Positions 31,072-64,000 of a stretch of DNA of 64,000 nt are shown piece by piece. Under the pieces are notes generated by a model. That model made no database searches and was not told the origin of the DNA. It saw only the letters and a program-made list of their open reading frames with translations. Numbering within the stretch: the stretch's first letter is position 1; every line of letters starts with the position of its first letter. The stretch is from a virus: IMG/VR virus record IMGVR_UViG_3300037245_003639; one strand, given 5' to 3'. The translations under genes were made by a program, and so were the position numbers.

Positions 31072-31129
31072 ATCCTACTCCAATGCTTCGCGTAGCACCG
31101 CTGTCTCACTTGAGATCAGTTCCTTAGTA

Positions 31130-31209: not shown

Positions 31210-31318
31210 AGGGGGCGGCGTGTCTCAGTCCGTCTGTTTGGAATGCCCATTCGGCCAGACAGAGCCGAGCGTCACGCCGCGCGATTCACAGCGTAGTATA
31301 CTCGCCCTTTCCACCTTG

Positions 31319-32572: not shown

Positions 32573-32683
32573 GCATAAAGTTGTTCTATTTATTAATTTC
32601 GTGTAGGTAATTCGGTGTTGAGTTATTTGGTGTGGGGTATGCGTATGAATTACTCACTTGAGATCAGTGCGGTCTACTCGATA

Positions 32684-33639: not shown

Positions 33640-33689
33640 GTATGAATAGTAACCCATGTTTGCCACTTTGTCAAGCGAAAAATTGGTTC

Positions 33690-33703: not shown

Positions 33704-33900
33704 TTGAAGAGTTTGCGAATTTTGTAATTTTGTAACTTTGTAACTGTTTCGCAATTTCGCAATTTTGCAACTTTGTAACTGTTGCAACTTTGCAAGTATT
33801 TGCAACTTTGCAACTTTGCAACTTTGCAACTTTGCAACTTTGCAACTTTGCAACTTTGCAACTTTGCAACTTTGCAACTTTGTATTTGCAACTTTGCGAA
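33700..33900. repeat. microsatellite: 8-bp unit TTGCAACT (about 13 pure copies at 33796-33896, degenerate copies upstream)
   Basis: Read directly; the ORF-track products with KVAKLQSCK repeats are artefacts of it. Confidence 0.85.
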
Positions 33901-33935: not shown

Positions 33936-34012
33936 CACTTGAGATCAGTGTAAAAAGTAATTTCGTGTAGGTAATTCCGTGTTGCAATTTCGTGTAGCAC
34001 TGATCTCAAGTG
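33936..34012. repeat. inverted pair of the 15-bp element (F 33936-33950, R 33998-34012) enclosing three AATTYCGTGTWG iterons
   Basis: Read directly. Confidence 0.8.
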
Positions 34013-36640: not shown

Positions 36641-36800
36641 TGTTGAGTGAATGGAATGGCCCATAGGAGGCCGAAACCCGCGCAGGAGAATCGCCTATGC
36701 GAACCGGAAACACCTGGTCAAGTTCCTAATTATTGGTCAACATCGCGCAGACGTACCGTTCGACATACGGTCCCGGGTCCAAACCCGGGGCCGTTTTTAT
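36641..36800 (+). ncRNA. candidate sRNA of about 160 nt between promoter 36606-36634 and terminator cccggg-tccaaa-cccggg plus T-tract (36772-36799)
   Basis: The only ORF, 36651-36839, runs through the terminator and has no SD. Confidence 0.4.
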
Positions 36801-36891
36801 TTCGTGTTGCAATTCAGTGTTAGCACTGATCTCAAGTGAGTGATCCAGGGTGACAGATTATGTCACCTTCGACGACCTCGTCATCTGCTTA

Positions 36892-39927: not shown

Positions 39928-40011
39928 GTCGGTATCTTACTCTATTCTGGTTGAATTGTCAAGCGGAACTTTGTTCTATTTCGTGTTGCAATTCCGTGTT
40001 GGAATTCCGTG

Positions 40012-46055: not shown

Positions 46056-46997
46056 TCAAGCAAAAACTGGGTGATGCACGGCCAAATGTTTTTGACCATT
46101 CGGAGTTATCATCCGTCCCCGTGATGTCCTGTCTATCATCCCCAGACTCAACAAAATCGGTTCCACGGTCTCTTCAATCACTTCAACCTGTTGACCCAGC
46201 CGACCAGCAATTCCACCCACACCACGGGGACCAGGAGTATCAGCCAATATCCTAAGATACTCAACATGCAACTCTTCAAGACCAATCGGGTCTATTCCTT
46301 CCAACCTAATGGCCAACTGACAATGAACCAACGTCAATTCAGAAGCATGGGAAGCCAAAAAGACATTGCGAACTTTCTCGGCCAACCTTTTAGCTTGCCG
46401 AGGAATTCCTAAACAACGTTTGGCTATGTACTCCAGGTGTGGATAATTCGTGTCAACGCCTTGAGATTCAAAATACTTGTGAAGGATGGTTATCAGGTCG
46501 TTGACTGAATACCTGCCCACTCGCCAGATGTTACCGAACCGTTTTACAAACGATGCCTGATCCAATTCGTCTCGTCGAGTAGTGGCAGCCATCAAAGTAT
46601 ACGGAGCCAAACCAATGGTTTTAGTTGGCAACAATATCCGAGGACTCTCTCGATCCATAGGATAATAGAAGACTTCTTGTTGTGGCTCGGAAAGTCTTTG
46701 AACTTCATCGATGAAGAGCAGCAAAGGTTTGCCTGCTTGAATAGCAGCTTCGTTAGCAGAAAGTAAGCGTTGAATGATTTGGTCCCGCGTCTTCAGTGCA
46801 GCAGCTTCAGTTACAATCGAGTAGTAACCGAGTTCTTCTGCAATGGCTAACGCAAGCGCAGTCTTACCAGTGCCACCAACCCCTTCGAGCAGAGTATGTG
46901 GGAAGACTTCACCTGTCTGACGACAGGCCTCGATATCGATATGGGCGCGAGCTTTCTCACGCCGCAAACCGATCAGTTTATCTAAACCTTTTGTCAT
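46056..46997 (-). CDS. ruvB: RuvB-like AAA+ ATPase (Holliday-junction branch-migration motor family)
   Basis: LLEGVGGTGKTALA, LLFIDEVQRLSEPQQEVFYYPMD, TLMAATTRRDEL, GIPRQAKRLAEKVRN, RTSRGRMIT parallel E. coli RuvB blocks. Confidence 0.8.
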   Translation of the reverse strand: MTKGLDKLIGLRREKARAHIDIEACRQTGEVFPHTLLEGVGGTGKTALALAIAEELGYYSIVTEAAALKTRDQIIQRLLSANEAAIQAGKPLLLFIDEVQRLSEPQQEVFYYPMDRESPRILLPTKTIGLAPYTLMAATTRRDELDQASFVKRFGNIWRVGRYSVNDLITILHKYFESQGVDTNYPHLEYIAKRCLGIPRQAKRLAEKVRNVFLASHASELTLVHCQLAIRLEGIDPIGLEELHVEYLRILADTPGPRGVGGIAGRLGQQVEVIEETVEPILLSLGMIDRTSRGRMITPNGQKHLAVHHPVFA

Positions 46998-47427: not shown

Positions 47428-47876
47428 TTTATTCCTCCAGGTCGAAATAGCGGGTCATGTTATTTTCCTCACCATGTTTGGTACCTTGGGGTTTTTAAAG
47501 ACTTTGATGCACTGTTTTAGAACGGCAGGGTCAATTTGAAACTCTCTCCTCGACCCGAAGTCCATCTGAAAGTCAACGCCATCCAGTTTCTTCTCAAAGA
47601 TGAACTCGTCATACCCAGTCGGGAGAGTCGGCTCAGGCAGGGGGTCGAAACCCATCGCCATTCGCAACGCATTGTCTGACCGCAGTTTTAGTCGAGCAGC
47701 TTCTTGCTCAACAGTCAACCCCGAAAATCCACTCAAACCCGTAGTGACTGGACGAGACGGGGCAGACCCACTTTTCGCGGGAACAATTTGAAGCCGCTCA
47801 GCCAGCAGTGTGTCTCGACGTATATTCACCCGTTGGCAAAGACCATTCCAGGCCATGAGCTTCGAGTTGTCCATCA

Positions 47877-48371
47877 CTACTCTGGCCCCCATCCACAACC
47901 TTGACAGAAGACGCTTGTTGCCCCTTGAATCAAACTGCAAGAGCAATTAGGGCAGCCATCCCCCTGTTGCGGCGGATGCTTACCACCGCATACCGACAGC
48001 GGCTTGCCACATTCACAGTCGCAAGAACACGGAGATTCATAGCAGGTTGAGCATAACGGATCCCAACCCAGAACCTTATGAACTTTGTTCATCATCTCAA
48101 TCGGGAGCGTCCCAACGTCCGTACAGCCCTCGATCTCAAAGTCGTTGGCCAAGTCGATCAGCAGCTTGGATGTTTCGTCCACGGTCACATTGAGCACCTC
48201 AATGCCGACCTGATCATCAAGGTCATGGACAAACCCCTCACTTTCCCCATACTTCATAGCATGAAGAATCGCTGCCTGCACCGCTCGTTGAAGTTGCTTA
48301 TCGGGAATCGAGCCCGAACCATCAGGATCGATTAGCGACGTGCGTAATGTGACGTTGATTTGAATGTCCAT
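47877..48371 (-). CDS. hypothetical protein with a C-terminal Cys-rich cluster
   Basis: ORF. Confidence 0.4.
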   Translation of the reverse strand: MDIQINVTLRTSLIDPDGSGSIPDKQLQRAVQAAILHAMKYGESEGFVHDLDDQVGIEVLNVTVDETSKLLIDLANDFEIEGCTDVGTLPIEMMNKVHKVLGWDPLCSTCYESPCSCDCECGKPLSVCGGKHPPQQGDGCPNCSCSLIQGATSVFCQGCGWGPE

Positions 48372-49737: not shown

Positions 49738-50244
49738 TTAACCTTGCGAAACAGATTGCCGTATCAACTGGTACATATGAACCTTCATGTCCGCCACAGA
49801 CATAAATTCTGTGACAGGTTCGTTCCCCTCTCCAGAATCTAATTGAAGTTGCCAACGCTCAGGACCATTTTGGACCAACGAGTACCGTTGGTTAGTTTGA
49901 GCCGTCAACCGGCCAAGCAAATCAAAAGGATGTTCGTGAGACAACATTCCATTCACGGCCAGCCAGTCAAACAACTCCCCTTCACTCGTGATGAAGTCCC
50001 CGCCGGGGTGATTGGTCTCTCTGCTGTCATGGCAGAGCGTGAATCCACAGCCCTTGCAACGAAACGAATAAATCCCGTCACAGTCGTCCGTCGAATGGTC
50101 CGTCTCACCATAGTTACAGGCAAACGCATCTCCACCCTGAGATTCGAGCGATTCAACCACCGTGGACTGTACCACGTCAGTTAAGACTTCCTCAAGAACC
50201 GTCTCCCCGCATTGCGGGCATTTGAAGTTGAGATCGACTCTCAT
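49738..50244 (-). CDS. hypothetical Cys-rich protein, 168 aa
   Basis: ORF. Confidence 0.45.
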   Translation of the reverse strand: MRVDLNFKCPQCGETVLEEVLTDVVQSTVVESLESQGGDAFACNYGETDHSTDDCDGIYSFRCKGCGFTLCHDSRETNHPGGDFITSEGELFDWLAVNGMLSHEHPFDLLGRLTAQTNQRYSLVQNGPERWQLQLDSGEGNEPVTEFMSVADMKVHMYQLIRQSVSQG

Positions 50245-50891
50245 CCGTTATCCCCAATGAAATTGGACGTAATCGCATTCGCCGTATCATCAGGATAAAA
50301 GTGCATCTGAGCCAACGAAACCTCACCCGGTAATTCATGCCGCAAATGAGCCCACAGCTTCCTACTCAATGACATACGCCGCCCTTCGCTGTTGTCAAAG
50401 ATTGTATAGTAGTCAGATGCAGGAGCGACCGACGCTGCCAATTCCTCATCACAACGCTCATGCGCCCAGTAAACAAACTCCACTTTGCCCCCTGGGAGGT
50501 CATACTCCGTCGTGAACTCATGCTTCATCTCGAAAAACGGCTTCCCCTGTGAGACAGCAGCGGGCTTCGAGACCGCCACCTGGATAGCCATCCACAGGAA
50601 CAACATCATAGCCACATACGCCATAACCCGCCAAAAACCCATGCGACAGAAGTTGATGTTCGGATGGTCCTGAGTATTGAAGTCACCACTCGATACCTTC
50701 GCAATACCCACGGCCTCATTCACCCCAGACCGCCACATGGCAAAGATACCCGCAAGCATTGGAAGGATGACAAATACCCACGTAGGAATCACGATGCTGA
50801 ATGACGGAAAACTCAAAATCAAAGCGTTCATTTCGGCTCCTCTTGCCAGTAGACAATCCAGTTTGACGCCCCTAGTTGAGAACAGGGGCAA
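50241..50891 (-). CDS. membrane protein, 216 aa
   Basis: ORF; N-terminal TM region resembles gene 27987-28235. Confidence 0.45.
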   Translation of the reverse strand: MPLFSTRGVKLDCLLARGAEMNALILSFPSFSIVIPTWVFVILPMLAGIFAMWRSGVNEAVGIAKVSSGDFNTQDHPNINFCRMGFWRVMAYVAMMLFLWMAIQVAVSKPAAVSQGKPFFEMKHEFTTEYDLPGGKVEFVYWAHERCDEELAASVAPASDYYTIFDNSEGRRMSLSRKLWAHLRHELPGEVSLAQMHFYPDDTANAITSNFIGDNG

Positions 50892-51168
50892 CAGTCAAGG
50901 TGTCCCAGTACCATCCCGACTCATCAGGCCCGTGAGCATCGTCATCGTAGGCAAGGTCATCAATGACCAAAGCCGTGCCATCACCCAGGGGTATAACGAC
51001 GTGTCGGTCATTGCCCTCACGATCTTTCAATCTTTGTATGGTTGTTTCGTCGAGACTGTCCAAGAACTTCTCAACCAGTGTATCCCGTTGAGACGAGTGG
51101 GTCTCTACGTCGATCTGTGCTTCGTTGAGTTGAACTTCTGTGTCGCTTAGTTGAGCTATGATATTCAC
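50872..51168 (-). CDS. hypothetical acidic protein, 98 aa (GTG start)
   Basis: SD GGGAG; promoter TTGACA-N17-TAGGAT at about 51200-51240. Confidence 0.4.
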   Translation of the reverse strand: MNIIAQLSDTEVQLNEAQIDVETHSSQRDTLVEKFLDSLDETTIQRLKDREGNDRHVVIPLGDGTALVIDDLAYDDDAHGPDESGWYWDTLTVAPVLN

Positions 51169-51336
51169 GTCAAACTCCCAAAACCAAGGTTTCCATGTCC
51201 GAATCGAATCCTACCACTCAACGTCCAGATTGTCAAGGCTATTTACGTGGTTCAGAATTTCCCAGTTAAAAGGAATATATTAACACGCACGCATGAAGCC
51301 GCTGTTGGAAATGGAGGCTCCGCCGCGCTGAAGAGC

Positions 51337-51381
51337 CACTTGAGATCAGTGCGCTGAAATGGAAGACACTGATCTCAAGTG
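51337..51381. repeat. inverted pair of the 15-bp element with a 15-bp spacer (F 51337-51351, R 51367-51381)
   Basis: Read directly. Confidence 0.8.
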
Positions 51382-51480
51382 ATGTGTGCTAAGCCGGCGC
51401 TAGATCATCCGCGATCGCGAATCCAGAAGATTTTGATTAACGAATTGTCCGAAATGGGAAATAAAGGAGCTGTCCTTCCC

Positions 51481-51536
51481 CACTTGAGATCAGTGTCCTG
51501 TTTATCAGACCTTGAAACTTACACTGATCTCAAGTG
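51481..51536. repeat. inverted pair of the 15-bp element with a 26-bp spacer (F 51481-51495, R 51522-51536)
   Basis: Read directly. Confidence 0.8.
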
Positions 51537-51860
51537 AGCGTGTGCCAGGGTATTTCATACCGCATATTATCTCAATCGGAATGGGGGGAACAAAAAGTGG
51601 AAACAAAGCGCGGACCCAGGACATCCCCCAATGTCCCGAGTCTCTTCTTTCCCCAGGAGAACACCTGAGCCTACACAGCTTTCAATTCTATGGGCCAAAA
51701 TGCAAGTCAATTTTCATCCACTTTCTCCTATTATACAAGGAATGTGTGTCCAATTATCAGAAGATTATATATGCACACTACTTCATATCCCAGTTCATTT
51801 CAATAAGAACTATTTTAAGAAGTTCAATTAGGACAATAGAAAAGTTGCGAGCCGCATCGA

Positions 51861-52060
51861 TGGAATCTTTGTTCTTTGGGGTTTGATTGTTGTGTTCTAA
51901 TGGAATCTTTGTTCTTTGGGGTTTGATTGTTGTGTTCTAATAGAATCTTTTTATTGATGGTAGAATCTTTGTTTTTTGGGGTTTGATTGTTGTGTTCTAA
52001 TAGAATCTTTTTATTGATGTTTATTGATGGTAGAATCTTTCTGTTGATATTGTGTTCTAG
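51861..52060. repeat. 40-bp tandem repeat T(G/A)GAATCTTTGTTYTTTGGGGTTTGATTGTTGTGTTCTAA (3 full units plus a degenerate one) interleaved with AT-rich 20-mers
   Basis: Units at 51861, 51901, 51961 and about 52031. Confidence 0.85.
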
Positions 52061-52093
52061 TTTTTCAAACCCAAAAATCTAATGTTTGAAATC

Positions 52094-52152
52094 TATTTCG
52101 TGTTGGGTTTCATGTTCCTGGGAATTTCGTGTTGGGTTGAATTTCGTGCTGG
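52094..52152. repeat. three AATTTCGTG(T/C)TGG iterons
   Basis: Copies at 52094, 52123 and 52140. Confidence 0.7.
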
Positions 52153-52252
52153 TTGAGCTACTGTGTTATTCTGTGGTTCAAAATGGGTCTCAGTGGGTGC
52201 ATTTCCCTGTTATTCCCTGGTAGACCCAATAAATGGTCTGCATTTCATAAAG

Positions 52253-52396
52253 TTATTCGGTGCAGCCCCTTCAATTCAGTGCATTCCTGTAGCCAAATTC
52301 CAATTCGGTGCAAGGTTAATGGTATTCTGTGTCTATTTGAATTCGGTGCAAGGCTATTCGGTGCAAGAATAGAGCGTGATTGAATTCGGTGCAAGG
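52253..52396. repeat. six direct copies of (G/C)AATTCGGTGCAAGG-like iterons
   Basis: Copies at 52253, 52272, 52299, 52338, 52354 and 52382. Confidence 0.75.
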
Positions 52397-52591
52397 TTTA
52401 TTCTATGTCTTATTTTGTGCTAGTTATGGAATTCTGGTAGTGAATCTAGCAGCGAAGGCATCGTAGCATTTGTGAATTTGGTGTCTGATATGGAAACCGA
52501 GTCTGGTTCGATTCCATTTGAATGGGAGAGTGAGCAGGTCTATTGCGTAGTGGCCTAATTCGTGCTGGACAAGACCTAAGCAGACCAAAGT

Positions 52592-52855
52592 TCATTCAAA
52601 CCCTCGGACGTAAATGTTTTTGGTATTTGGGTCATAGACTCCGGTACGGGATGGGAATCCTTGTGGAATGGTTCTTGGTCTTCTGATGGTAGGGAGTAGG
52701 TACTTGATTTGCCATTTACCGATATTCAGTGCTGTATATACTTTTGGTCCTCCATCCCCTTGTTGGTTACAGTATGGACAAGTAGAGGATGTGTGCAGAT
52801 CGTTCCAGTCTAGCTGGTGATGGCAGAAGTAGCAGTGTTGGGTTTGTTTTACCAT
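52592..52855 (-). CDS. zinc-finger protein, 87 aa (CxxC...CxxC; possibly an HNH-type nuclease)
   Basis: Promoter TTGACC-N17-CATAAT with the TTTCCGCGGAAAA box upstream. Confidence 0.4.
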   Translation of the reverse strand: MVKQTQHCYFCHHQLDWNDLHTSSTCPYCNQQGDGGPKVYTALNIGKWQIKYLLPTIRRPRTIPQGFPSRTGVYDPNTKNIYVRGFE

Positions 52856-52923
52856 ATAGTGATTATGGGGGACATGGGGGTATTGGTCAAGGGGGCTTTG
52901 AATTTCTTTCCGCGGAAAATGGG

Positions 52924-53427
52924 TTATTGTGCAAAGTAATTATCCAGATGTTGCACGAGTTTCTTTGATGGGAATATGGCTGTTTGGTTTTGTCTCTGTT
53001 CTTCTATGAAGTATCCTTGGCTGACGAGCATTCCATAGGCGGTTGCGTTATCGACGATGCCATTTCCGCTGGATGAAAAGACGCCTTTGCCACGCCATGA
53101 GAGTGGCTCTCCTGGGTCTCCATTGGCGTTTATTACGGCAGCGCTGATGGTTTGGGCCACCATGGCTTCTGTTTCGGCTCCGCGTCTGCGGTTTGGAAAC
53201 AGGTGACAGAGACTGCGTTTGTCTATTTGGGCTTTGAGTCTTGTTACGTCTGCTACGGTGGCTTTCATGGGTTTCCTTAGCTCCGTTTCTCGGTATCCCT
53301 CGCAATGAAGCAGCGTGTTGTGCATCAAATCGCGAATCCATTGGCAGGACTGCCTATTGTTGACATACTCGTAAAAGGCCCATTGGTAGGAGCCTTCTGT
53401 GGGTGTTTCTTTTAGGGTGGTGGTCAT
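52924..53427 (-). CDS. hypothetical protein, about 167 aa
   Basis: Start MTTTLKE; 5'UTR CCAATTTTCGCGGAGA provides the SD. Confidence 0.45.
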   Translation of the reverse strand: MTTTLKETPTEGSYQWAFYEYVNNRQSCQWIRDLMHNTLLHCEGYRETELRKPMKATVADVTRLKAQIDKRSLCHLFPNRRRGAETEAMVAQTISAAVINANGDPGEPLSWRGKGVFSSSGNGIVDNATAYGMLVSQGYFIEEQRQNQTAIFPSKKLVQHLDNYFAQ

Positions 53428-53452
53428 ATTCAATTCTCCGCGAAAATTGGGT

Positions 53453-54049
53453 TTAGGATGCGTCGCGTACCCAATCGTGTTCACTTCCGTAATCGCAACC
53501 TTCGGGTGGCAATGTGCTACGGATAGGACAGGTTTCGTCATCGTCCTGGGGGCCGTTGCGGACTTTTTTGCACCAGCAGCAAATGGCCGATTGCGTTCCG
53601 GCAACCCTGGGGCCTAACAATGGAGCAGAGCCACGCTGACAACATGCAAGGAAGTCGTCTACTGCCTCACCTGTAAAGAGTGGAGTTTCCTTGACCTGAA
53701 TAGTAGACAAGCCCGTTCTATTCAAGCGGTCAACTCTCTCTGAGTAGCTAATTGTCTCGTTCATCCAATCAGGAATAGGAACTCTGGACAAGAAAAAGCC
53801 ACTAAAAGTGGCTCTCTTTTGTTCCCAACCGCCACCGGTTCCTGTGTGATACAAGTCCATTTTGTAAGGGAACAGGTATCCGATATCTGATAAGAACTGT
53901 TCGATTCGTGATGTTTTTACATGACGCACGCCGAGGAAACTGCGGAAAGCTTGGCCGGACAGACAAACGCAGTCGGCTTTGGATTGCCAACAGAGACGAG
54001 CAAGATACTCGGCCATCTTCTTGTGATTGATTCTATCAAAGTTATTCAT
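53453..54049 (-). CDS. hypothetical Cys-rich protein, 198 aa
   Basis: Same 5'UTR element, GCCAATTTTCGCGGAGA. Confidence 0.45.
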   Translation of the reverse strand: MNNFDRINHKKMAEYLARLCWQSKADCVCLSGQAFRSFLGVRHVKTSRIEQFLSDIGYLFPYKMDLYHTGTGGGWEQKRATFSGFFLSRVPIPDWMNETISYSERVDRLNRTGLSTIQVKETPLFTGEAVDDFLACCQRGSAPLLGPRVAGTQSAICCWCKKVRNGPQDDDETCPIRSTLPPEGCDYGSEHDWVRDAS

Positions 54050-54203
54050 CTTGCTCTCCGCGAAAATTGGCTAGAGTACAATTTTTACGAGCCAGTAAAC
54101 CAGACCGTTGAATAGAGCAGTGATGCTCAGGCCAACCATAAGCCACCACACGCAGCGTGGTATTGTGATTGTTTTGGGCTCAAAGAGCCAGGCGATAATG
54201 TTC

Positions 54204-54695
54204 TCAATCACCTCTCGCTCCTGTCGTTGTCGTTAGCTTTGCTTTGAGTTGTTCCATGGCTTCCCGGGCTTTCCTGGTTTGCTTTTCCCTTAATTTAGCT
54301 TCATAGGGTTTACTCAGATTATCCGCTTCTGCGAGGATAGCCTGTAGGCATTCTCGTTCTTCGGATGACAGGCAGAGTTCCTTTCCGTGATGCCCGGGAT
54401 GCCACCGCAGCATCCCGCGGATTTCCTGGCTTTTCTGCATTATTCGCCAATGTTCTATTGGTATAAGCCCATAGTTGTCATGTCGTTTGTAGACTTCTGG
54501 ATTGATTGAGATTGTATCGTCGGTTCTGGAAATATCAAGCGTGATCCAGTAGTCGGTTGAAAGCCACGTTGTCAGGAAGAGGCAGGCTACTGCTAGGAAA
54601 ACCATAGCGGGGGCAAGTCCCGACTTGCCCTTATCACGTATGGCGATTGCAATCGCCGCGATTATGATGATGATTCCGGGGATAAGAACTAGCAT
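54204..54695 (-). CDS. membrane protein (MLVLIPGIIIIIA...), tandem paralog
   Basis: About 50% identical to 54770-55216. Confidence 0.45.
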   Translation of the reverse strand: MLVLIPGIIIIIAAIAIAIRDKGKSGLAPAMVFLAVACLFLTTWLSTDYWITLDISRTDDTISINPEVYKRHDNYGLIPIEHWRIMQKSQEIRGMLRWHPGHHGKELCLSSEERECLQAILAEADNLSKPYEAKLREKQTRKAREAMEQLKAKLTTTTGARGD

Positions 54696-54769
54696 GATTC
54701 TCTCCTATCGTTTGGCTCGTCCAAGAGGATTTCGCTCAATTGCTTGCAGCCGAGCGATAATGTTCTCAA

Positions 54770-55216
54770 TCATTTCTCATTCCATCGCTCTTGGAACTCT
54801 TCCGTCACTTTTATGACCTGTTTTTTCCTGAATTCTTCGCTGTATGGGCGTTGAACTTCAAGCGTTTTCGCGATAATTGCTTGGAGATTTGCTTGTTCAT
54901 CATCGGACAGATAGGATCGGTTCCGTCTCAAGAAGTCAGAAGCCTCTTTGCCTTTGTCCATGATACGCGAGTCGGCTATTGGTATAAGCCCATAGTTGCT
55001 ATGTCGTTTGTAGACTTCCGTGTTGAATGAGATTGTATTGTCGGTTCTGGAAATATCGAGTGTGACCCAATAGCAGTTTGAAAGCCACGCTGTCAGGACG
55101 ACAAAGATTATCGCTAGACCAGCCATAACGGGAGCAAATTCTGAACCGGGCCTGCAACACACGACGATCACGAGCAACGCGATTATGATGATGATTCCGG
55201 GGATGAGAACTAGCAT
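54770..55216 (-). CDS. membrane protein, tandem paralog of 54204-54695
   Basis: Shared N-terminus and YKRH(S/D)NYGLIPI block. Confidence 0.45.
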   Translation of the reverse strand: MLVLIPGIIIIIALLVIVVCCRPGSEFAPVMAGLAIIFVVLTAWLSNCYWVTLDISRTDNTISFNTEVYKRHSNYGLIPIADSRIMDKGKEASDFLRRNRSYLSDDEQANLQAIIAKTLEVQRPYSEEFRKKQVIKVTEEFQERWNEK

Positions 55217-55596
55217 GATTCTCTCTTATCTGCCTCTTCGTCGAGACGAGCATTGATTTCGTCTAATGTTTCGTAGCTGACGGGATGCGGCTCTTGCTCC
55301 AAGTTTCGCCGCACTTGCTGCGCGTGTTCTTGTAACGTGGGCGGTTTTTGGCCGGTGATTTCACAAACTTGCTTTTTGAACCGCCAGCCGAGATAGACGA
55401 TGTTCGTGCGCAGTCGCCGCAGGCCCCGATAGGTTTTGACGGCAACGTACAATGTTACCAACGCTGTCAACCACCACCACCAATGCTCAGGGGCCTTGCA
55501 AATCTTCCAGACAGATAGCAAGAAAAGCAGGCCAAAAATGATGCTCCCTCGGTATTCCTTGGCGATATACAACCAATGTTCGATTTTGCGTCTCAT
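55210..55596 (-). CDS. membrane protein, 128 aa
   Basis: Promoter 55651-55679 (TTGACA-N17-TATACT). Confidence 0.45.
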   Translation of the reverse strand: MRRKIEHWLYIAKEYRGSIIFGLLFLLSVWKICKAPEHWWWWLTALVTLYVAVKTYRGLRRLRTNIVYLGWRFKKQVCEITGQKPPTLQEHAQQVRRNLEQEPHPVSYETLDEINARLDEEADKRESC

Positions 55597-55714
55597 TTGG
55601 ATCCTTTCGGAATTTGCATTTCCTCACTCAGGCCTCTTTCTGTTAAGAGCAGTATAGGGGATATGGGGGAGATTGTCAAGGGTATATACTAAGTGCTACT
55701 TTTGGGAAAATGGC

Positions 55715-55942
55715 TCATGTTGTCCATGGCTCGCCTTCATCGAGTACATCAATCATGCCCGCGGACATGTCTGGTTCTTCGCTGTTGTCGAGCACGATAG
55801 AGACATTCATAGATGCCTTGTGCCCGATCCAGTTGATATGCACTGGGGCATCGAGCAGTTCACAGCCATCGGGCACTTTATTGAGGACATCCCGCAATTC
55901 GCCCCAAGTAACTGAACCTGCTTTACCTGCGCTAGTAATCAT
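55715..55942 (-). CDS. small acidic protein, 75 aa
   Basis: Promoter TTGACA-N17-TATAGT at about 55975-56005. Confidence 0.4.
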   Translation of the reverse strand: MITSAGKAGSVTWGELRDVLNKVPDGCELLDAPVHINWIGHKASMNVSIVLDNSEEPDMSAGMIDVLDEGEPWTT

Positions 55943-56029
55943 CTGTTTCCTTTCACTTGAACGCGGGTTTTACTCATAGGCTCACTATATCTCATTGACA
56001 GAAATTTGTCAAGGTAAATATTCAGTGTA

Positions 56030-56677
56030 TCACGTCCATGATGTAGGTGGAGCGACAGGCTCGTATCCGATTGAATTCCTGCCCTCTAAGACAGCCGATG
56101 GCACATCTGCGAAAAGGGGTTCATAACGCTGGTACAGGGTTGGAAGTTCCTCTAGGTAATTGAAGTCTCTGACCTGCTCTTTGACGAGTTCGATTTCGCG
56201 TGGTGAGAGTCGGTGAGGGCGTAGGCAGGTGGTTAAGGCTGAGCAATGAACTTTTGGACCATTGATCGCCTGCATAAGTCCCACATATGGTTTTCGAGTG
56301 ATAATTTCCCAAGCAGCTCCTCTTAGTCCTCCGAGGGCCACTCGATTGGCTTTGGTCCAGTGTTGGAAATGCTCCAATACTCCGCGCAAAGCTGGTTCCA
56401 CTTTATAGCGGACGGCCAGGACAATCACAGGAAGTTCTTTATGTAGCAGAGAGGGAGGAATAGGCTGGAGCAAGATGGCCATTTGTGCGAATATCTCATG
56501 CTTGTCGGCAAATTCTAGCAATTTGTCGGTAGTTTTTTCTGGTTCAATATCTCCGCCGGAAACAAAACCGGATTTACCAATGGGTCTGATGGTCCATGCG
56601 GTTCTATCGGGGGCAGTCAATAGATCCAGAACAGGAAAGGTGAAGTCTTCTATGTATGTTATGGGATTTGCAATCAT
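56030..56677 (-). CDS. hypothetical protein, about 215 aa
   Basis: Start MIANPITY; the longer ORF-track start overlaps a neighbouring ORF. Confidence 0.4.
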   Translation of the reverse strand: MIANPITYIEDFTFPVLDLLTAPDRTAWTIRPIGKSGFVSGGDIEPEKTTDKLLEFADKHEIFAQMAILLQPIPPSLLHKELPVIVLAVRYKVEPALRGVLEHFQHWTKANRVALGGLRGAAWEIITRKPYVGLMQAINGPKVHCSALTTCLRPHRLSPREIELVKEQVRDFNYLEELPTLYQRYEPLFADVPSAVLEGRNSIGYEPVAPPTSWT

Positions 56678-57118
56678 GCGAACATATCCTTTTCGCAGTT
56701 GGTTTGTCGTTTGAGTGATTGGAAAATGGTGCGAGCACATCGTTGATTTTCTGTGAGTGATTATCCTTCACCAGATGGAAGAGCACCCAAATTTCCTTGA
56801 TGGAGATGGTGAAGAGTTGCGGCTTTTGTGCAGATATGCGTTCCAACATGGCATCGAATAAGAAATGCACCCGCTCCAATCTGGTGAGTTTGGCAGTCTT
56901 GGCTGTTTGGTGAATATGGGATTTACCGATTGAGATGTTGGCATTCAGTCGGATTGGTTGTGCTTGTGTTACTGAGGAGCAGAATCGTTTTGTTACGCCT
57001 TTGAGTGCCTCGAAGCAGGCTGCTGGGATCAGTTCATCTCTAGGATAGCCGAAATAACCCAGACTAACTGGTAGTTGTTCATCGATATCTATCATTTTGA
57101 TGACTTCTTTATGTTGAT

Positions 57119-57601
57119 TTAGTCCATTTTGTCTTTGAACCTACCCACGTCGATGGCCTGGGGAACCATATCGAGGGTTCCGTCTCTGATTACATCAATC
57201 CAATGCCATCCAACTCTCGGAGCGAACATTCTCACGAATAGGTATCCATCTTCTTCCATGGCCCAGACAGGCACATTCAGATCAGAGGAGAGCAAATCAG
57301 GTTCGTCAGCGGGCTGGTGGAGCATTTCCTGATAGACATCACGAGTGAAGAGTCGAATAACAAGGCTATGTCGTTTTTTCTTCGCAGCGGCTTCTTGAGC
57401 GAAACGTAGGCATCCTAAATGGTTGAATCCTTTGGGGAGCCCCAGGGCAATCGAGCCAATGCCAACAGAGGTAGTCCCGGGGCGCCAACCAGCGCAAGTT
57501 TGGCCTTCTTGAGGAGTTCCTTGTAGATCGAAAGCTCCACATTGAGCATTTATGCCAGCAACGCAGCCGGGGCATTGGAACTTTTCTACCATGTCTTTCA
57601 T
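57119..57601 (-). CDS. hypothetical Cys-rich protein, 160 aa
   Basis: ORF. Confidence 0.45.
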   Translation of the reverse strand: MKDMVEKFQCPGCVAGINAQCGAFDLQGTPQEGQTCAGWRPGTTSVGIGSIALGLPKGFNHLGCLRFAQEAAAKKKRHSLVIRLFTRDVYQEMLHQPADEPDLLSSDLNVPVWAMEEDGYLFVRMFAPRVGWHWIDVIRDGTLDMVPQAIDVGRFKDKMD

Positions 57602-57607
57602 GGGGTT

Positions 57608-57991
57608 TTATCCTTTGAAGACTTCGACAGGTTTTTGGTTCTCATCGACGGCTACGAAAACAAGAGTTGCTTGAGTGACGAATCCTTCCGCTAATGGAAT
57701 GTGGTTAGCATAAGCCAGAACATGTACTACAATGGAACTTTTGCCGACTTTGATGGTTTCGACAAAGAAGCTAACAACATCGCCTACTTGGACAGGTTTA
57801 CGGAACTCGATTTTGTCCATTGCGATGGTGACGAATTTGATGTTTTCGACCCCTGCGGCTTTACCCGCTTCTTCGGCGTGGATGGCTCCAGCTTGATCGA
57901 TATAGCTGAGAAGAACGCCACCAAAGATGATGCCATGAGGGTTGGTATCTTTGGGCATCATCATAACTTTGATTGCAGGGTCGTTATGCAT
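57608..57991 (-). CDS. hot-dog fold acyl-CoA thioesterase (YciA/4HBT-like)
   Basis: NPHGIIFGGVLLSYIDQAGAIHA ... VGDVVSF parallels the YciA-type N-terminus. Confidence 0.6.
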   Translation of the reverse strand: MHNDPAIKVMMMPKDTNPHGIIFGGVLLSYIDQAGAIHAEEAGKAAGVENIKFVTIAMDKIEFRKPVQVGDVVSFFVETIKVGKSSIVVHVLAYANHIPLAEGFVTQATLVFVAVDENQKPVEVFKG

Positions 57992-58284
57992 TATTTGTTC
58001 CTCACTCGGATGTCAGCCCCATGGTTTGTTGGAAGCTGTTCCGGTCCATTTCCAGAATGCGCAGAGCCTTTTCTTCCTCGCTGGTTGATAAGCCCTGTTG
58101 TTGTCGGTCGGCAATGCGTTGTTGCAATTGTGGCTCGTGGAGCAATTCTTCGTCATCAAAGCCAGCGTTCAAGATGATAAACGGTGCCACTTCATCTTCA
58201 TAGCGAACAAATCGGATGCTAGCGGTAATGATTCGGTAAAACGCCCATTCGACTGATCGTCTAACTGGTCGTCTAACCATTCAC

Positions 58285-58602
58285 CTATCCCCCGCTAAGT
58301 CCGTTGCTGAACGTTTGCACGACTTCCAGTACAGTCAGTTGCACTTTGACTGCTCTAACAACTGGACATTCATCGCGGAATTGCGGCTCATCGCCTTCCT
58401 GGTTATGACCTTGCTGCAAAGAACTACTGAGCATTCTTGATACCGTATCAATGTCGAAAGATTCGTGACCATCTTCCTTGCGAACCAGGACGTAGCAGAT
58501 GGAAGGATCTGGATCGGGCTTCTCCCTGGCGGCTTCTTGGAGTTGTGCCAGCAGAGCCTCAACTTCTGGTATTTGGCGTTTGGCTTCTTCTCGTGTCATC
58601 AT
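58285..58602 (-). CDS. hypothetical protein, 105 aa
   Basis: Promoter 58609-58637 (TTGACA-N17-TAAAAT) with the extended palindrome 58641-58659 upstream. Confidence 0.4.
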   Translation of the reverse strand: MMTREEAKRQIPEVEALLAQLQEAAREKPDPDPSICYVLVRKEDGHESFDIDTVSRMLSSSLQQGHNQEGDEPQFRDECPVVRAVKVQLTVLEVVQTFSNGLSGG

Positions 58603-59968
58603 AGCTACATTTTATCTGAGAGGTTGTTGATTGTCAATGATTTTCATCCGCGGAAAATGGATGGCGGATGATTTTGTGTCCCTGAGTTCTCCAGCCCTCG
58701 ATGTACTCATTGAGTTTATCGTCGGGGTTTGCGGATATGTCTCCAGCGACAATTTGATACTCAGCTACTTCGATGCTGAGCAGACCTCGTTCATCCTCGG
58801 CCACGTCTTCTATGCCAATGATGGAATAGAAGTTCATTGGTTTGCCTTCAAATCCTTCTTGTTGTTTTAGGTGGATAGTTGCCATATCAGAATATTGTTC
58901 CTCCACAACAGAAGTAGATTGACAACATAACAATGGCCATGAAGATGAAAGTGACCCATGGGGTTCTTTTGGGTTTTGGTTGAGGCCAATGGCCTGTCTC
59001 TTGCATCATTTTGATGTACTCGTCTTCTACGCCTTTTTGATGCGCATGCAAGCAATCTTGGCAGATGCCAACATGTAGATAATCAGGAGAATAGTTGCCG
59101 CAATGACGACAGTAGCCAGCCATTAGGTTTCACTCGCTTCATTCTCATCGTCTACCCTGAAAATCATGTTCAATTCGTCGAATGGGTCAGGTGGCGGTCG
59201 GGTTTCAGGGTCATAGTGAAACACTCTACTACAGTGGGGTGATTCGACAAGCAACCGCTGGCCATTATCTCTGATGGAGCAAGCTCGAAAGACGCAGCCA
59301 TCGATATGACGGGCAGTCGAGGCGTATTTCATGGCCTTTTGTCGGGCGTCTGCATAGGTTAATTCATCGGCCACCGCTGCTCCAATTGCTGACGTTTATC
59401 TTTGAGCATTTGTTTGGCCCAGTTTTGTAGGACAACATCTAGTTCACATATGGCCTGCCCCAGGATGTCGTTGATAGCATCCAGTTCTTTTTCAATCTGG
59501 CGGTAGATTTCGTTGCCGCGGATTTTCTGGGTTCTCAGTTCATGCTCTGAGAGACAGACGAAGACGTAAGTTCTACCCATCCAGAAGGTCATTTGTTGTT
59601 CCAATAGACTGAGACGCTGATGCTGTTCCACAGGACAATCACCCACCCGAAACCAACCAGAACCCTGTTGACGATTTCCGGTTGGCCGGTAATGGGGGTG
59701 ATCCGCAGGATAACGAATCCCACCGCAACAGCAATGGCACTGACTAAAACTTTCCAGTTCACTAGTGTTTCCTCAGCCTAAGTTTCATCTCTGTCGTTAT
59801 CAGGGTTAAACGACTCTGGTCTTGACTGGTGAATTCAATGGGCTGATTCGCAGCCGTGAGCATTTTGGCTACGAGTTCAGCCTCAACCAATCTGCGATAT
59901 TCTGCCAACAGGTTTGGGCCTGCCATGTTACGAATTTCTTTGTAAGAGGCTGGAGTTCTGGCCATCAC

Positions 59969-60250
59969 TTATCCTATAAGGTCAGTGGTTTCCTTGTCGT
60001 CTTTGGCGATCGCTCGATTGCAATAAGCCACGATAGCCACAGCGTTAATTACCAACAGGACCGCACCAATAACGGCCTGTTTCGGTGAGCGAGCAGTTAG
60101 CAGTATACCGATAGAGGCCAGTTCTCCGAGGATATTGAATAAAAACAATGCCTTCCAGAACCAGTGCTCCGGTTTCAGCACAGGCTTGCCGCATCTGGCG
60201 CAAAACTTAGCGGCGCCTGCAATTAGTTGGCCGCATTTGGTGCAATTCAT
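59969..60250 (-). CDS. zinc-ribbon plus 2-TM membrane protein, 93 aa
   Basis: CxxC...CxxC, then hydrophobic segments. Confidence 0.4.
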   Translation of the reverse strand: MNCTKCGQLIAGAAKFCARCGKPVLKPEHWFWKALFLFNILGELASIGILLTARSPKQAVIGAVLLVINAVAIVAYCNRAIAKDDKETTDLIG

Positions 60251-60690
60251 GATCCTGCACTCACTCTTGCTATTGCTGCCTTGGCGTCATACTTTATCTC
60301 TTCCAACGTCTTTGAGTGGTCACATTTCCACTCAAAGAATGGCCCAGTACGCCCACTGCCACAATAACCGTTTTCCCCAATTTGTTCAATGTCATACCAG
60401 CCGATTTTGATGCAACCAATTTGATGGTTTCTGTGAGCATCATCATCACCATGAACGAAGTAGTTCTTGAGCCGATTTTTGGCATGACGAATCGCAGCCA
60501 AGATAGCACGAGGCATCAATGATTCGGGTCTCGGTGTCTCGTTAGGAGCATCTTCGGGCAGCGTGAAAAGAGTAACGATAGCCCGTTCACGTCGGCCACC
60601 CGCGTTGGCGTCATCATAAGTAACCGCTACTTCGACTTCGAGGCATCTCATGTCTAACTCCCGCTCCAGTGTCGCTGCATGTCGCACCAT
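60247..60690 (-). CDS. hypothetical protein, 147 aa
   Basis: ATGA overlap. Confidence 0.4.
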   Translation of the reverse strand: MVRHAATLERELDMRCLEVEVAVTYDDANAGGRRERAIVTLFTLPEDAPNETPRPESLMPRAILAAIRHAKNRLKNYFVHGDDDAHRNHQIGCIKIGWYDIEQIGENGYCGSGRTGPFFEWKCDHSKTLEEIKYDAKAAIARVSAGS

Positions 60691-60757
60691 CCTTCCAGTT
60701 GGAGGATAACCGATTAGTGAGAGATTGTCAAGCGTAATTTATGGTTCTGTCGTTGCA

Positions 60758-61174
60758 CTATCCAAACATATCTCTCAATTGTGCGTCTCTACGCTTTTTT
60801 GCGTTGGCTTCCCATCCTACCAGCGTGGGGTCTTGTTCTTCACTGGTATTCGCCGCTAACCGCCAGCGGTTGAGACGATTGTAGTCTTTGATGGTATCGT
60901 GGATGATTTCTATGTGTTTTTCACCGCTGATTGTAATTCCCTGCTCGTCTCGCCCTCTGGTATCTCCCCTGACGAACATTTTATCCGCCGCTCTCCATTC
61001 GGGGAAATTGCAAGAAACGAGCCTGAGGCCATAGGGTCCACTATACTCACTACAGCAGACGCAGCCCTCGGGGTAATGAAATTCATCGCCGCGAAATTCT
61101 TGACGAACGACTACCAACTCCCATTTGTCATCGCCCAGTTTGGTTATCTTGACTTTCAGAGCATCCTGCATCAT
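60758..61174 (-). CDS. hypothetical protein, 138 aa
   Basis: ORF. Confidence 0.4.
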   Translation of the reverse strand: MMQDALKVKITKLGDDKWELVVVRQEFRGDEFHYPEGCVCCSEYSGPYGLRLVSCNFPEWRAADKMFVRGDTRGRDEQGITISGEKHIEIIHDTIKDYNRLNRWRLAANTSEEQDPTLVGWEANAKKRRDAQLRDMFG

Positions 61175-61784
61175 CAGCCTTTCTGAATTCCAATTGTTAA
61201 AGTCTTGTCATAATCACGCCTGTTGCAGTGTAAGGGAAATGGCTGTGATTGTCAATGGTGTTTTATTAGTGCAGGAATGTTATTTCAAGGCTTGTTCGAC
61301 GAGTTGGTTCTTAGTCATTGGGAAGTTTGCCGTGCAGGATGTTCATCACCAACTCAATTTGAAAGAGATTGTCAAGGGTTTTTATTGGTGCGGAAAGAAT
61401 CGATCGTCGGTGAATTCAGGGTTAGTGAAGCCGATTATAGAGTGAGTAGTTCCTATCAGCTCATGTTCCAACACGCCGGCTTGATGAGTATGGATCACTT
61501 CAACTGCATCGGCATCGGGGAATTGGCCCTTGACTTCATGAACTAGTTTGTCAGCCCTGCGAATTCGTGAAACTTTGCGGTGAATGATGATAGTCTCGAT
61601 CATGCTGTCAATATACTCCTAGGAGACTATTTGTCAAGGTAGAAATAGACGGTTCTAAGGCAAGGCTCCACCCACCGTCAAGTCTAATTTTTCGGAGACT
61701 TACCGCTTAGCCGACTACAAAACGGCAGCTTCCTAGCCCTGCTGGCAACTAAGGATGCAGTTGTAGAGCATTTGGTTTGAATTG

Positions 61785-62861
61785 TCAAGGACGGAGATTC
61801 CTAAAATACTCATCTTCTTCCGCGAATTTTACATGAGATAACCAATTGGCGGATTGATGCAGTACAGAGAGATACTTGGCTGGGATATTGCCATAGACTG
61901 CTACCGTATCAAGCATATAATCCTGTTCATGTTCGGCTTCATAGAAATCATAACCAATCAGATGAGCGAGAGCATTTTTGGTTTCAGCTTCTTCGACAGG
62001 AGTTTCGCCAGCGATTTCGGGCATATAGCCGTCAGCCTTCATGGCATTGAGGTCGATCGCAATAACGGTCTCGCCATAGCTCTCTAGGGATGCATGGGGA
62101 CTGTCAGTATATTCAGGGCTGATAGTGAAAACGGCAGGCCCCATATCTTTGTTGCTGAGCCCTCGCGTATCTTCTCGGGCTTCGAGGCCGGTCACCATTA
62201 TGGCGTCAAGGTTTTCTTCGATCGTAGCGTGATAAAGAACCGCTCCTGGACCTACGCTTTCCCAAAACTCTTTGGATTTGTTTTGTTCTGGAAAGTAGTC
62301 CTCGGGTTGTTCTGCGGCATCTTCTATCCACTCCTCAGCAGAATCCCATTTGGTAAAACTTCCATCATCATTCTGTTCTACCACCCATAATTCAGGGACT
62401 TCCTTGCCCCACGCATTTTTGTTGGCACCGACTTCGATGGTGAGTATTTTTTTGCCTGTGGGAGCCTCTACAGTATCGTAGTTGATATTGTGCTTGTCCA
62501 TTATTTGTCGGAGACGTTCCATGTCTCCATTATCTATATAGAACTCAAGTATCTCGTTATCAAACCAATTCTCATAATCTTCTGGCTTAGGGGATTCAGG
62601 CTCACGAGAATTGTATTCTATTTGCTGCAAATAGCGGTCGTAGTTCGGGTCTCCTGTCACAGGATTCTGTTGTATCCACTGTAGGAGTTCTTTCCAAGGT
62701 TGAGATGCGGCCTGATTAATTTGAGCATCTTCCACCAACGAATCATAGTAAGTCACAGCTTCGCGGGGAAATGCTCGTCGAATCTCTAACGCACGTTTGA
62801 CGGCAGCGGCCATGCGTTGCGCTAGGTCGCTAAGTTGAGCTATCTTCTGAACCCAGTTCAC
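61785..62861 (-). CDS. hypothetical acidic protein, 358 aa
   Basis: ORF. Confidence 0.45.
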   Translation of the reverse strand: MNWVQKIAQLSDLAQRMAAAVKRALEIRRAFPREAVTYYDSLVEDAQINQAASQPWKELLQWIQQNPVTGDPNYDRYLQQIEYNSREPESPKPEDYENWFDNEILEFYIDNGDMERLRQIMDKHNINYDTVEAPTGKKILTIEVGANKNAWGKEVPELWVVEQNDDGSFTKWDSAEEWIEDAAEQPEDYFPEQNKSKEFWESVGPGAVLYHATIEENLDAIMVTGLEAREDTRGLSNKDMGPAVFTISPEYTDSPHASLESYGETVIAIDLNAMKADGYMPEIAGETPVEEAETKNALAHLIGYDFYEAEHEQDYMLDTVAVYGNIPAKYLSVLHQSANWLSHVKFAEEDEYFRNLRP

Positions 62862-63340
62862 TCCTGGTCTCCGAATCTAAGTCTGCGGATTCCCATTGAC
62901 CTGCTGAATTCGAGTTCATCGTCAATCATCTCATAGACTTTACCAACCATAACCTTAACCAGTTCCATTCTCCACCGCTGTAATCCTCCTGGCTCTCGCG
63001 GAAGTTCACGGGATATCTTCTGGCTATATTGCGTGGAGTTTATCAAACTTTGATCTTCGCCCATCAGGGTAATGTAAATCATGGTATCGCCACCGAATTG
63101 GGAGAACTGATCATTTACATTGAGTTCAGCTTTTATCCCAGCCTCGTTTTGGAACAAAGCTATCCTGGCAGTGGAATACTCAGCCGGGTCTGCTACACGT
63201 TGGCTTGAACCAAGTAATGTAAACTGACCCAATTGTGGGTGGGGTTGCTGTTGGAAGATATTTCCCACGTCACTAATCCAATCCCCGATTCCATTGCCTG
63301 GAGGGGGAACCTGGGCCAAACTTTTGTGCAACCAATTCAT
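62858..63340 (-). CDS. hypothetical protein, 160 aa
   Basis: ATGA overlap; ATTTCCGCGGAAGGAAAAG box in the 47-nt intercistronic gap upstream (63369-63386). Confidence 0.45.
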   Translation of the reverse strand: MNWLHKSLAQVPPPGNGIGDWISDVGNIFQQQPHPQLGQFTLLGSSQRVADPAEYSTARIALFQNEAGIKAELNVNDQFSQFGGDTMIYITLMGEDQSLINSTQYSQKISRELPREPGGLQRWRMELVKVMVGKVYEMIDDELEFSRSMGIRRLRFGDQE

Positions 63341-63389
63341 ATCCTTAGAATTGCCTCTAAAGGGGTGCTTTTCCTTCCGCGGAAATAGT

Positions 63390-63995
63390 TTAGAGATGTC
63401 GCTGAATCTTGCGAATGATATCTTTGCTCACAGGGCCAGTTCTATACCCTTGTCGCCAATCATTCGATTTTCGGAACGCTTCATTCTGAATGGGACAATA
63501 GGTGATACGACAACCATTATCTGCGTAACAGACGCCTTGAGACATGAAATCGGCTGGCAGAAGGCCCCCTGTGGCCTTGAGAATGATGCCTTTGTGGGGT
63601 CTATGGGCCTGATCAAGCGACAAATCAATAAGCATCGAATCCAAAACGATAGCTACAATGTGGCTGAGACCCGTATTGTCAATCGCTACTGAATAGGCCC
63701 CCTGAGCCAGCCATGCTTGACTTTCTTCTCTCGATTGGGGATATCCGCTTTTGGCATCGAAGAGTTCTACAAACTTAGGATTCATGACTTCGAACAGACA
63801 TGCTTGCGGACGGGCGCCGATTTTGAAGTGGTTGAGGACTTTGATAACGACTTTGGTTGAGGCTACACAGGAATCCACCTTGAACCACTTGAGGATTTCT
63901 GGTCTGCCATATTTGCAAAGCAGTTTGCAGATTCTATCCTGTCGTTTTGTCATCGGTGGAGTTCGATTCCCATGTTTCCAGGAACCACTCTTCAA
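63390..63995 (-). CDS. hypothetical protein, 201 aa
   Basis: ORF. Confidence 0.45.
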   Translation of the reverse strand: MKSGSWKHGNRTPPMTKRQDRICKLLCKYGRPEILKWFKVDSCVASTKVVIKVLNHFKIGARPQACLFEVMNPKFVELFDAKSGYPQSREESQAWLAQGAYSVAIDNTGLSHIVAIVLDSMLIDLSLDQAHRPHKGIILKATGGLLPADFMSQGVCYADNGCRITYCPIQNEAFRKSNDWRQGYRTGPVSKDIIRKIQRHL

Positions 63996-64000
63996 TAGTG

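Follow-up and report, generated by a model that had tools for sequence, protein, structure and literature searches.

A candidate replication origin within a conserved non-coding module of a huge phage-like genome

Where does replication start in a huge phage? To our knowledge the replication origins of such phages (>200 kb) have hardly been mapped at all, and the majority of their genes cannot be annotated. The question is raised here by about 1.4-1.75 kb of non-coding DNA in record IMGVR_UViG_3300037245_003639, from a phage-like genome that is uncultured and huge (~400 kb). We analysed 64,000 nt of this record (hereafter the window), in which the region of interest, 51169-52591, is the longest non-coding gap. 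A preliminary description had proposed it as a replication origin, packaging site or terminal region. The part that is specific to the region is a module of about 750 bp at 51750-52485. As this module lies in the longest gap, holds the AT-richest DNA, carries an array of boxes in one orientation and is conserved as a unit, the data suggest a nucleoprotein site that acts in cis and is laid out like an origin. These four features lend partial support to the earlier origin proposal, while the hairpins and the AATTTCGTGTTGG boxes, which it also took as origin markers, do not. Judged from its sequence, we tentatively suggest that the module may be an oriC-like replication origin, with a box cluster beside an unwinding element.

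Composition of the non-coding module

The absence of a credible gene from 51169-52591, as first described, was borne out. Mechanical open reading frames (ORFs) in the stretch reach 124 aa, a codon-usage caller retained only one marginal ORF (52424-52588), public gene calls on contigs identical to the stretch place no gene within it, and in the alignment with relatives the indel lengths are not multiples of three. All repeats listed in the preliminary description were also found where it had placed them, far above chance expectation. The elements of the module follow one another in the order AT-rich box, invariant CGCATCGA, tandem array of 10-bp modules, three type-1 boxes, unique box and about ten ATTCNGTGCAAG boxes:

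51751-51832, plus strand: conserved AT-rich box AATATTATATATGCACAC ... TTCATTTC.AAAAAGAACTATTTTA, GC 30-33%, the left edge of the conserved module
51853-51863, strand-neutral: CGCATCGATGG, whose first eight bases are CGCATCGA, adjoining the tandem array
51860-52060, plus strand: tandem array of 10-bp modules in 40-, 60- and 20-bp units, GC 24-31%, with a GT-rich plus strand
52065-52077, strand-neutral: TCAAACCCAAAAA, the inverted complement of the TTTTGGGGTTTGA segment present in each 40-bp unit
52095-52152, plus strand: three type-1 boxes ATTTCGTGYTGG, starting at 52095, 52124 and 52141; the box is also found in six other intergenic clusters of the window
52169-52214, plus strand: unique box GGTTCAAAATGGGTCTCAGTG....CA..TCCCT, conserved in relatives
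52255-52483, plus strand: about nine type-2 boxes, ATTC(G/A/T)GTGCAAG and variants, in one orientation

The type-2 boxes start at 52255, 52274, 52303, 52324, 52341, 52356, 52384, 52412 and 52476, and an extra ATTCTGTG core at 52168 stands to the left of the unique box, outside the 52255-52483 array. The six iterons counted earlier at 52253-52396 resolve into five exact ATTCGGTGCA boxes and one ATTCAGTGCA (52255-52393). Within the window the type-2 boxes (ATTCGGTGCAAG) are restricted to this region. Within the 390 bp of 52095-52483 there are 13 copies of the generic core ATTNNGTG, all pointing the same way and none the other, where about 0.1 copies would be expected. Each box has an 8-bp core and an extended form of 12-14 bp, and the start-to-start spacing is irregular (15-64 bp). 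The type-2 variants hold their positions in two related contigs, L035 and L037, as would be expected for sites of graded affinity. A CRISPR array does not describe the boxes, which are 8-14 nt long with irregular gaps of 15-64 nt and keep their positions between lineages.

To the left of the boxes, 51698-52100 (GC 24-31%) has the lowest GC and the least stable duplex of the 64 kb at scales of 50, 100, 200 and 400 bp. Its least stable 100 bp reach -112.5 kcal/mol, against a window mean of -140.2 (sd 7.0). Tandem Repeats Finder reports a period of 40 with 2.3 copies at 51860-51950 and a period of 60 with 2.0 copies at 51903-52019, both with 98% matches, and a further 10-bp tandem unit lies at 52010-52029. 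All sub-repeats begin at multiples of 10 bp. The array is confined to this region within the window; its copy number differs among lineages, and short-read assemblies break at it. We regard it as a candidate DNA-unwinding element. The adjoining CGCATCGATGG includes the 8-bp palindrome CATCGATG, and CGCATCGA is invariant across four lineages.

Three further readings of the AT-rich block were examined and rejected. Single-strand hairpins in the tandem array gave no significant folds, the single strands being essentially unstructured. Intrinsic bending found no autocorrelation signal in the A/T-tract periodicity, despite the unit phasing in multiples of 10 bp. A conserved minus-strand TATAAT in the AT box, considered as a promoter, has no -35 hexamer at a usable distance, and its orientation is not kept in the related contig L049.

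Conservation in related genomes

Relatives were reached through the hairpin formed by a dispersed 15-mer, M (described below), and through the RuvB homologue encoded at 46056-46997. The module was found, with its order and orientation kept and its flanking genes altered, in four other lineages: L037/L038/L039/L044, L035, L049/L050 and L047, the last with the array only. Identity of their RuvB homologues to that of the window ranges from 79 to 56%. In the L037 group and in L035 the AT-rich box AATATTATATATGCACAC ... TTCATTTC.AAAAAGAAC is followed by CGCATCGA, AT-rich repeats of variable copy number, two to three ATTTCGTG boxes, ATGGGTCTCAGTG....CA..TCCCT and 9-12 ATTNNGTG boxes. The box word itself drifts with lineage, being ATTTGGTGCAAG in L037 and ATTCGGTGCAAG in the window. 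The L049/L050 contigs end just past an AT-rich stretch, CGCATCGATGG and the first ATTCAGTG repeat, and L047 keeps only an array of 6-7 ATTTNGTGCT boxes, located between divergent genes. In each relative it is the module, or in L049 the cut contig end beside it, that holds the AT-richest 200 bp of the locus.

The flanks differ considerably. In L037 the homologues of window genes 49738-50831 are found on the opposite side of the module, and in L035 IS605/TnpB elements lie beside it; two TnpB (OrfB_IS605) genes and a Y1 transposase gene occupy L035 962-5052, about 3 kb from the module. The RuvB homologue lies 1.5-5.4 kb downstream of the module in every case. In L037-type relatives it is adjoined by a DNA polymerase III beta clamp gene (L037 8267-9394). 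No clear clamp gene was seen at the equivalent position of the window, and a split sliding-clamp gene suspected at 47455-48371 found no support from Pfam or BLASTP. A search for a conserved DNA-binding gene neighbouring the module in relatives gave no Pfam matches.

Megablast and blastn searches of INPHARED phages and PLSDB plasmids with the region and its surroundings gave no match. Motif scans of IMG/VR and GTDB (15-mer, hairpin and unique conserved box) gave single chance matches or none, and protein-anchored scans of IMG/VR (flanking protein and RuvB) gave no match. Identical or near-identical counterparts of window proteins are on record for a JGI contig of 403,172 bp.

Dispersed sequence elements and gene content of the window

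The remainder of the stretch and its borders hold the following features:

51208-51236, minus strand: sigma-70-type promoter (TTGACA, 17 nt, TAGGAT) that serves gene 50872-51168, a member of the dispersed CTTGACAATCT family
51337-51351 (leftward) and 51367-51381 (rightward), both strands: divergent M pair, a 15-nt perfect inverted repeat, 100% complementary
51481-51495 (leftward) and 51522-51536 (rightward), both strands: second divergent M pair with a 24-nt gap
52592-52855, minus strand: doubtful 87-aa zinc-ribbon ORF with a promoter-like TTGACC, 17 nt, CATAAT (52890-52862), 6 nt before the ATG
52907-52918, strand-neutral: palindrome TTTCCGCGGAAA, directly upstream of the -35 hexamer; the same layout occurs at 33691

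The inverted pairs had been listed as an origin feature, and this did not hold, as their arms are members of a dispersed 15-mer family of 27 copies. M (CACTGATCTCAAGTG) occurs 27 times between 27813 and 51536 of the window, where 2.15 copies are expected and none of 100 shuffles reached 27; it was not found in 1-27.6 kb or 52-64 kb. In the second pair the perfect complementarity extends to 16 nt (51481-51496/51521-51536). The copies are nearly always intergenic, and 19 of the 27 point leftward with the minus-strand genes. The other eight point rightward against the genes, and six of these are the right partner of a divergent perfect pair. Conservation is limited to about 17 nt, the next base being a purine in 27/27. 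M is also present in the related contigs L031, L035, L037 and L049, and its word shifts with lineage, to CACTGATGTCAAGTG (GATGTCAAGTG) in L035 and CACTGATGTCAGGTG (GATGTCAGGTG) in L049.

Mycobacteriophage Cluster A stoperators (PMC9283540, PMC6550527) and P1 C1 operators were compared with M, not with the module. M resembles stoperators as an asymmetric site of 13-17 bp, present in tens of intergenic copies, mostly in one orientation relative to transcription and varying with lineage. It differs in that eight copies oppose the genes, that no repressor was identified, and that some copies stand 9-12 nt ahead of a start codon with a following purine, which would equally fit a phage-specific promoter; others lie 25-300 nt upstream of sigma-70-type promoters. 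As M is dispersed, intergenic, lineage-varying and close to starts and promoters, we consider it a candidate phage-specific promoter or stoperator-like operator and not an origin hairpin. In an RNA-primed origin of the T4 oriF/oriG or T7 primary type a promoter would fire into the unwinding element. The rightward M copies at 51367 and 51522, putative as promoters, face the AT-rich block, whose other side is flanked by the type-1 boxes.

Two side observations concern M. In L031 (2445-2564) a 38-bp unit holding one M copy and one ATTTCGTGTGGG box is tandemly repeated 3.1 times, hence the M word and the box word travel together. A one-mismatch M copy lies 8 nt beyond the 3' end of a minus-strand tRNA gene at 31129-31210 (Rfam 50.3 bits), to which ARAGORN assigned no amino acid ('tRNA-???', anticodon 'cg').

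Two families of sigma-70-type promoters, each of near-identical copies oriented with the genes on both arms, recur in the window. The first, CTTGACAATCT(C), is found at 4344, 11575, 31721, 32564, 32897, 42031, 45262, 45577, 46051, 49531, 51228, 55671, 60723 and 61367. The second, AAAGAACTTGACA ... TGGTATACT, is found at 28291, 30612, 31530, 35762 and 36042. The -10 hexamers TACTAT (within 33639-33670) and CATAAT (within 52855-52890) end 6 nt ahead of the ATG of 33289-33639 and 52592-52855 respectively, which suggests that these two genes have leaderless mRNAs. A further copy of the palindrome TTTCCGCGGAAA lies at 40727, and incomplete ones at 58647 and 63376.

The gene 52592-52855 had been taken as the right-hand boundary of the stretch. 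An ORF is indeed present there, but it is doubtful as a gene. It was skipped by the codon-usage caller and by the public calls on contig L030, and an exact-sequence look-up of its product gave no record. The non-coding stretch may therefore extend to 52923. If the ORF is a gene it may be leaderless, because the promoter-like site ends only 6 nt ahead of its ATG. Cyanobacterial HIP1, suspected from GCGATCGC at 51411, was dismissed, its two copies in the window being at chance level.

The genes of the window lie on the plus strand over 1-27.6 kb and on the minus strand from 28 kb to the end. Very few families could be recognised, among them an SNF2 helicase, an FtsH-like AAA+/M41 protease, a RuvB homologue, GroES, ClpS, ACP, a thioesterase and several PHROG families of unknown function, and one protein is shared with Bacillus and Vibrio phages of large or jumbo size (about 150-195 kb). 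No terminase, integrase or capsid family was detected in the window, whose most plausible reading is that of an accessory or early region in the genome of a huge, uncultured phage. The FtsH-like protease (17569-19524), GroES and ClpS form a proteostasis set; a NADAR-domain protein is encoded at 26070-26645 and an ArdC-like protein at 28276-29220. The RuvB homologue (46056-46997, minus strand) is conserved across the clade and matches PDB 1in4 over its full length (E = 1.8e-35); RuvA was not detected in the window. The idea that this RuvB-like AAA+ protein is a hidden initiator or clamp loader was dropped, because the protein is a full-length RuvB homologue.

The origin reading and its alternatives

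If the module is an oriC-like origin, many copies of one phage-specific DNA-binding protein would be expected to assemble on it. The 13 same-orientation ATTNNGTG boxes (three type-1, about ten type-2) would load the protein, the nucleoprotein complex would melt the adjacent tandem array and AT box (51750-52060), and the replisome might then enter at the melted DNA. The same protein could serve as a transcription factor at the dispersed type-1 triplets ahead of sigma-70-type promoters, as is the case for DnaA. Further, we speculate that one factor with DnaA-like logic, unrelated to DnaA itself, reads ATTNNGTG at early or middle promoters and also acts as the initiator, a combination that we consider rather doubtful. 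If true, a single protein would tie gene expression to the firing of the origin.

Bacterial oriC resembles the module in having many short boxes (8-9 bp core) with irregular spacing and conserved strong and weak variants, an adjoining AT-rich tandem-repeat element, and a box that is reused at promoters elsewhere. It differs in that the module box ATTNNGTG is unrelated to TTATCCACA, all module boxes have one orientation, DnaA boxes are absent from 51-53 kb and no DnaA-like gene was found; the replication role of the module is moreover one that we infer. The origins of lambda, P1 and theta plasmids (R6K, RK2, pSC101) likewise place direct repeats beside an AT-rich region. Such an unwinding-type region is found beside the boxes here, and its AT-richness is conserved in relatives. 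The split into type-1 and type-2 boxes recalls origin and control iterons, e.g. P1 incC/incA. In classic iteron origins the repeats measure 17-22 bp, recur about every two helical turns and are situated in or beside a rep gene. The classic iteron or theta layout proposed in the preliminary description did not stand up, as the sites of the module are shorter (8-14 bp) and irregularly spaced, only the AT-rich units are helically phased, no rep gene is adjacent and no Rep family was found. The layout seems to match the logic of oriC better than that of classic plasmid iterons.

Phage T4, likewise a large lytic-type phage, offers two comparisons. Its oriE has conserved 12-nt iterons, and the module similarly is a non-coding cluster of direct repeats of about 12 nt kept in syntenic regions of relatives (PMC3016281). 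Its oriF and oriG join a transcription-factor-dependent promoter (MotA) to an A+T-rich unwinding element, as the proposed module would join transcription-factor sites to one (PMC3016281). The T4 iterons are evenly spaced, in contrast to the 15-64 bp of the module, there is no sequence similarity, and no promoter was identified inside the module to correspond to those of oriF and oriG.

In favour of an origin we also count the RuvB homologue that always follows the module, with the clamp gene nearby in L037, the lack of structure in the single strands of the AT-rich DNA, and the absence of coding and of RNA structure from the stretch. Several points weigh against it. The boxes are short and irregularly spaced, unlike classic iterons, and the type-1 box acts like an ordinary transcription-factor site at three promoters. 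In L047 neither the AT box nor the CGCATCGA motif accompanies the array, which lies by itself in a divergent promoter region. The T4 oriE iterons have, according to a review, never been linked to origin activity (PMC3016281). No Rep, DnaA or O-type family was found with Pfam and PHROGs among the module's neighbours and the ~110 window proteins, nor among the module's neighbours in relatives. Neither beside the module nor in the window as a whole could a gene for an initiator, helicase loader, primase or polymerase be recognised. The only match of the window to the DnaA box (TTATNCACA) is at 46438, outside 51-53 kb. An initiator may be a novel protein or be encoded elsewhere in the ~400-kb genome.

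The GC skew cuts both ways. Its cumulative minimum in the window falls at about 51 kb, and both the window and L047 show a change of sign at the module, between genes of like orientation. Third codon positions reveal a compositional island: block B (28000-51168) has a GC3 of 57% against 50% in 1-27600 and 52924-64000, and a coding-strand GC3 skew of -0.035 against -0.17 and -0.205 elsewhere, and its extent is exactly that of the M 15-mer family. L037 shows equal skew to the left and right of the module. The turn at 51 kb is thus largely a compositional boundary, and we downgraded the skew, which is ambiguous as origin evidence, because of this island and the lack of change in L037.

The alternative that survives best is that of a regulatory super-site, in which the module would be a high-capacity operator, enhancer or titration locus for the ATTNNGTG-box factor, with no role in replication. 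It would govern nearby promoters or buffer the level of free factor, as datA does for DnaA. The case for it comes from the type-1 boxes, which had been read as iterons marking an origin, a reading that fails since they recur ahead of ordinary sigma-70-type promoters. Intergenic AATTTCGTGTTGG clusters of 1-3 boxes lie at 32596-32632, 33960-33994, 36799-36819, 39978-40011, 42836-42857/42910 and 43596; they fit ATT(T/C)(C/G)GTGTTG and are all in plus orientation. Those at 32.6, 40.0 and 42.8 kb, as doublets or triplets, stand 15-23 nt upstream of a TTGACA -35 hexamer and therefore resemble transcription-factor sites, and those at 33.96, 36.8 and 42.9 kb lie within or beside M pairs. Of all plus-orientation ATTNNGTG cores 26/43 are intergenic, while only 17% of the window is non-coding. 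From these positions the dispersed boxes look like the regulon of a phage transcription factor. The L047 array, in its divergent promoter region with no AT box, is also in line with a super-site. Other intergenic control regions are repeat-rich too, e.g. the 8-bp tandem repeat TTTGCAAC (22.6 copies, 33712-33897), located between an M pair enclosing three type-1 boxes and a promoter. This 8-bp array is absent from the related contig L031, whereas the module is conserved. Moreover, downstream of the boxes within the module no canonical promoter is seen, be it in the window, in L037 or in L035, and 13 sites in 390 bp together with a conserved AT block and the invariant CGCATCGA far exceed the two to three sites found at promoters. 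On balance we find a pure super-site less likely than an origin, though a serious competitor to it.

A role at the RNA level seems improbable. The module would in this case be a Rho-loading or termination zone between transcription blocks, or a repeat-bearing protein-binding non-coding RNA (ncRNA), and leftward read-through from the upstream genes would give a long C-rich, G-poor and unstructured RNA. In agreement with this, there is no intrinsic terminator between 52592 and the module, the plus-strand GC skew is +0.3 to +0.6 across 51850-52500, which makes a minus-strand RNA C-rich and G-poor, and the module lies at the border of block C and the M-rich block B. The folds of the module (plus strand z = -1.28, minus strand z = -0.08) are not beyond shuffled controls, and a search against Rfam gave only sub-threshold miRNA-type matches located on the perfect hairpins; on these results we rejected a structured ncRNA, while an unstructured minus-strand RNA would agree with them. 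Against an RNA-level role, the boxes of the module also stand ahead of -35 hexamers, a DNA-level context, and the tandem units keep a phasing of 10-bp multiples. Nor does the module mark a constant block boundary, since L037 has M elements and B-type genes to either side of it.

Packaging was also among the initial proposals, and neither for a pac or cos site nor for partition do the neighbouring genes give support. At a pac or cos site or genome end the repeats would serve as binding sites for the small terminase, with cleavage at the CATCGATG palindrome or in the AT-rich DNA. The invariant palindrome motif with repeat arrays on one side does recall a cosN-cosB layout, and several contigs of the phage and its relatives end in or beside the module. 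Same-strain short-read contigs terminate at 51889, 51990 and 52063, within or at the edge of the tandem array, and a fourth at 52524, to the right of the box array. The ends at the array are accounted for by the tandem repeats, which trivially break assemblies, and the end at 52524 may simply reflect low coverage; L037, L038 and the window itself run unbroken through the module. With no terminase family among the ~110 window proteins, and with the boxes recurring at promoters, we regard this as very improbable. The least probable of the alternatives, and scarcely credible, is a partition centromere, a direct-repeat array bound by a centromere-binding repressor that also sits at promoters, as the omega protein of plasmid pSM19035 does at its heptad arrays, which would imply a plasmid-like lifestyle: short same-orientation repeats do occur in one large array and ahead of several promoters, but no ParA, ParM or ParB family was found in the window, nor any evidence of lysogeny or a plasmid state, integrase, repressor and Rep families being undetected.

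We thus retain the oriC-like origin as our tentative suggestion for the module. It should be noted that hairpins and 'iterons' judged at one locus can prove to be genome-wide regulatory elements. Around the module, M, the ATTNNGTG boxes and the extended -35 promoters make up a dense set of conserved regulatory words in a genome that is otherwise dark. As a conserved and recognisable non-coding unit, the module provides an anchor for comparing the rearranged genomes of this clade, and a concrete locus at which the start of replication in huge phages may be studied. If it is an origin, it would be one of a known kind in a lineage without a cultured representative, with a sequence unrelated to any described origin.

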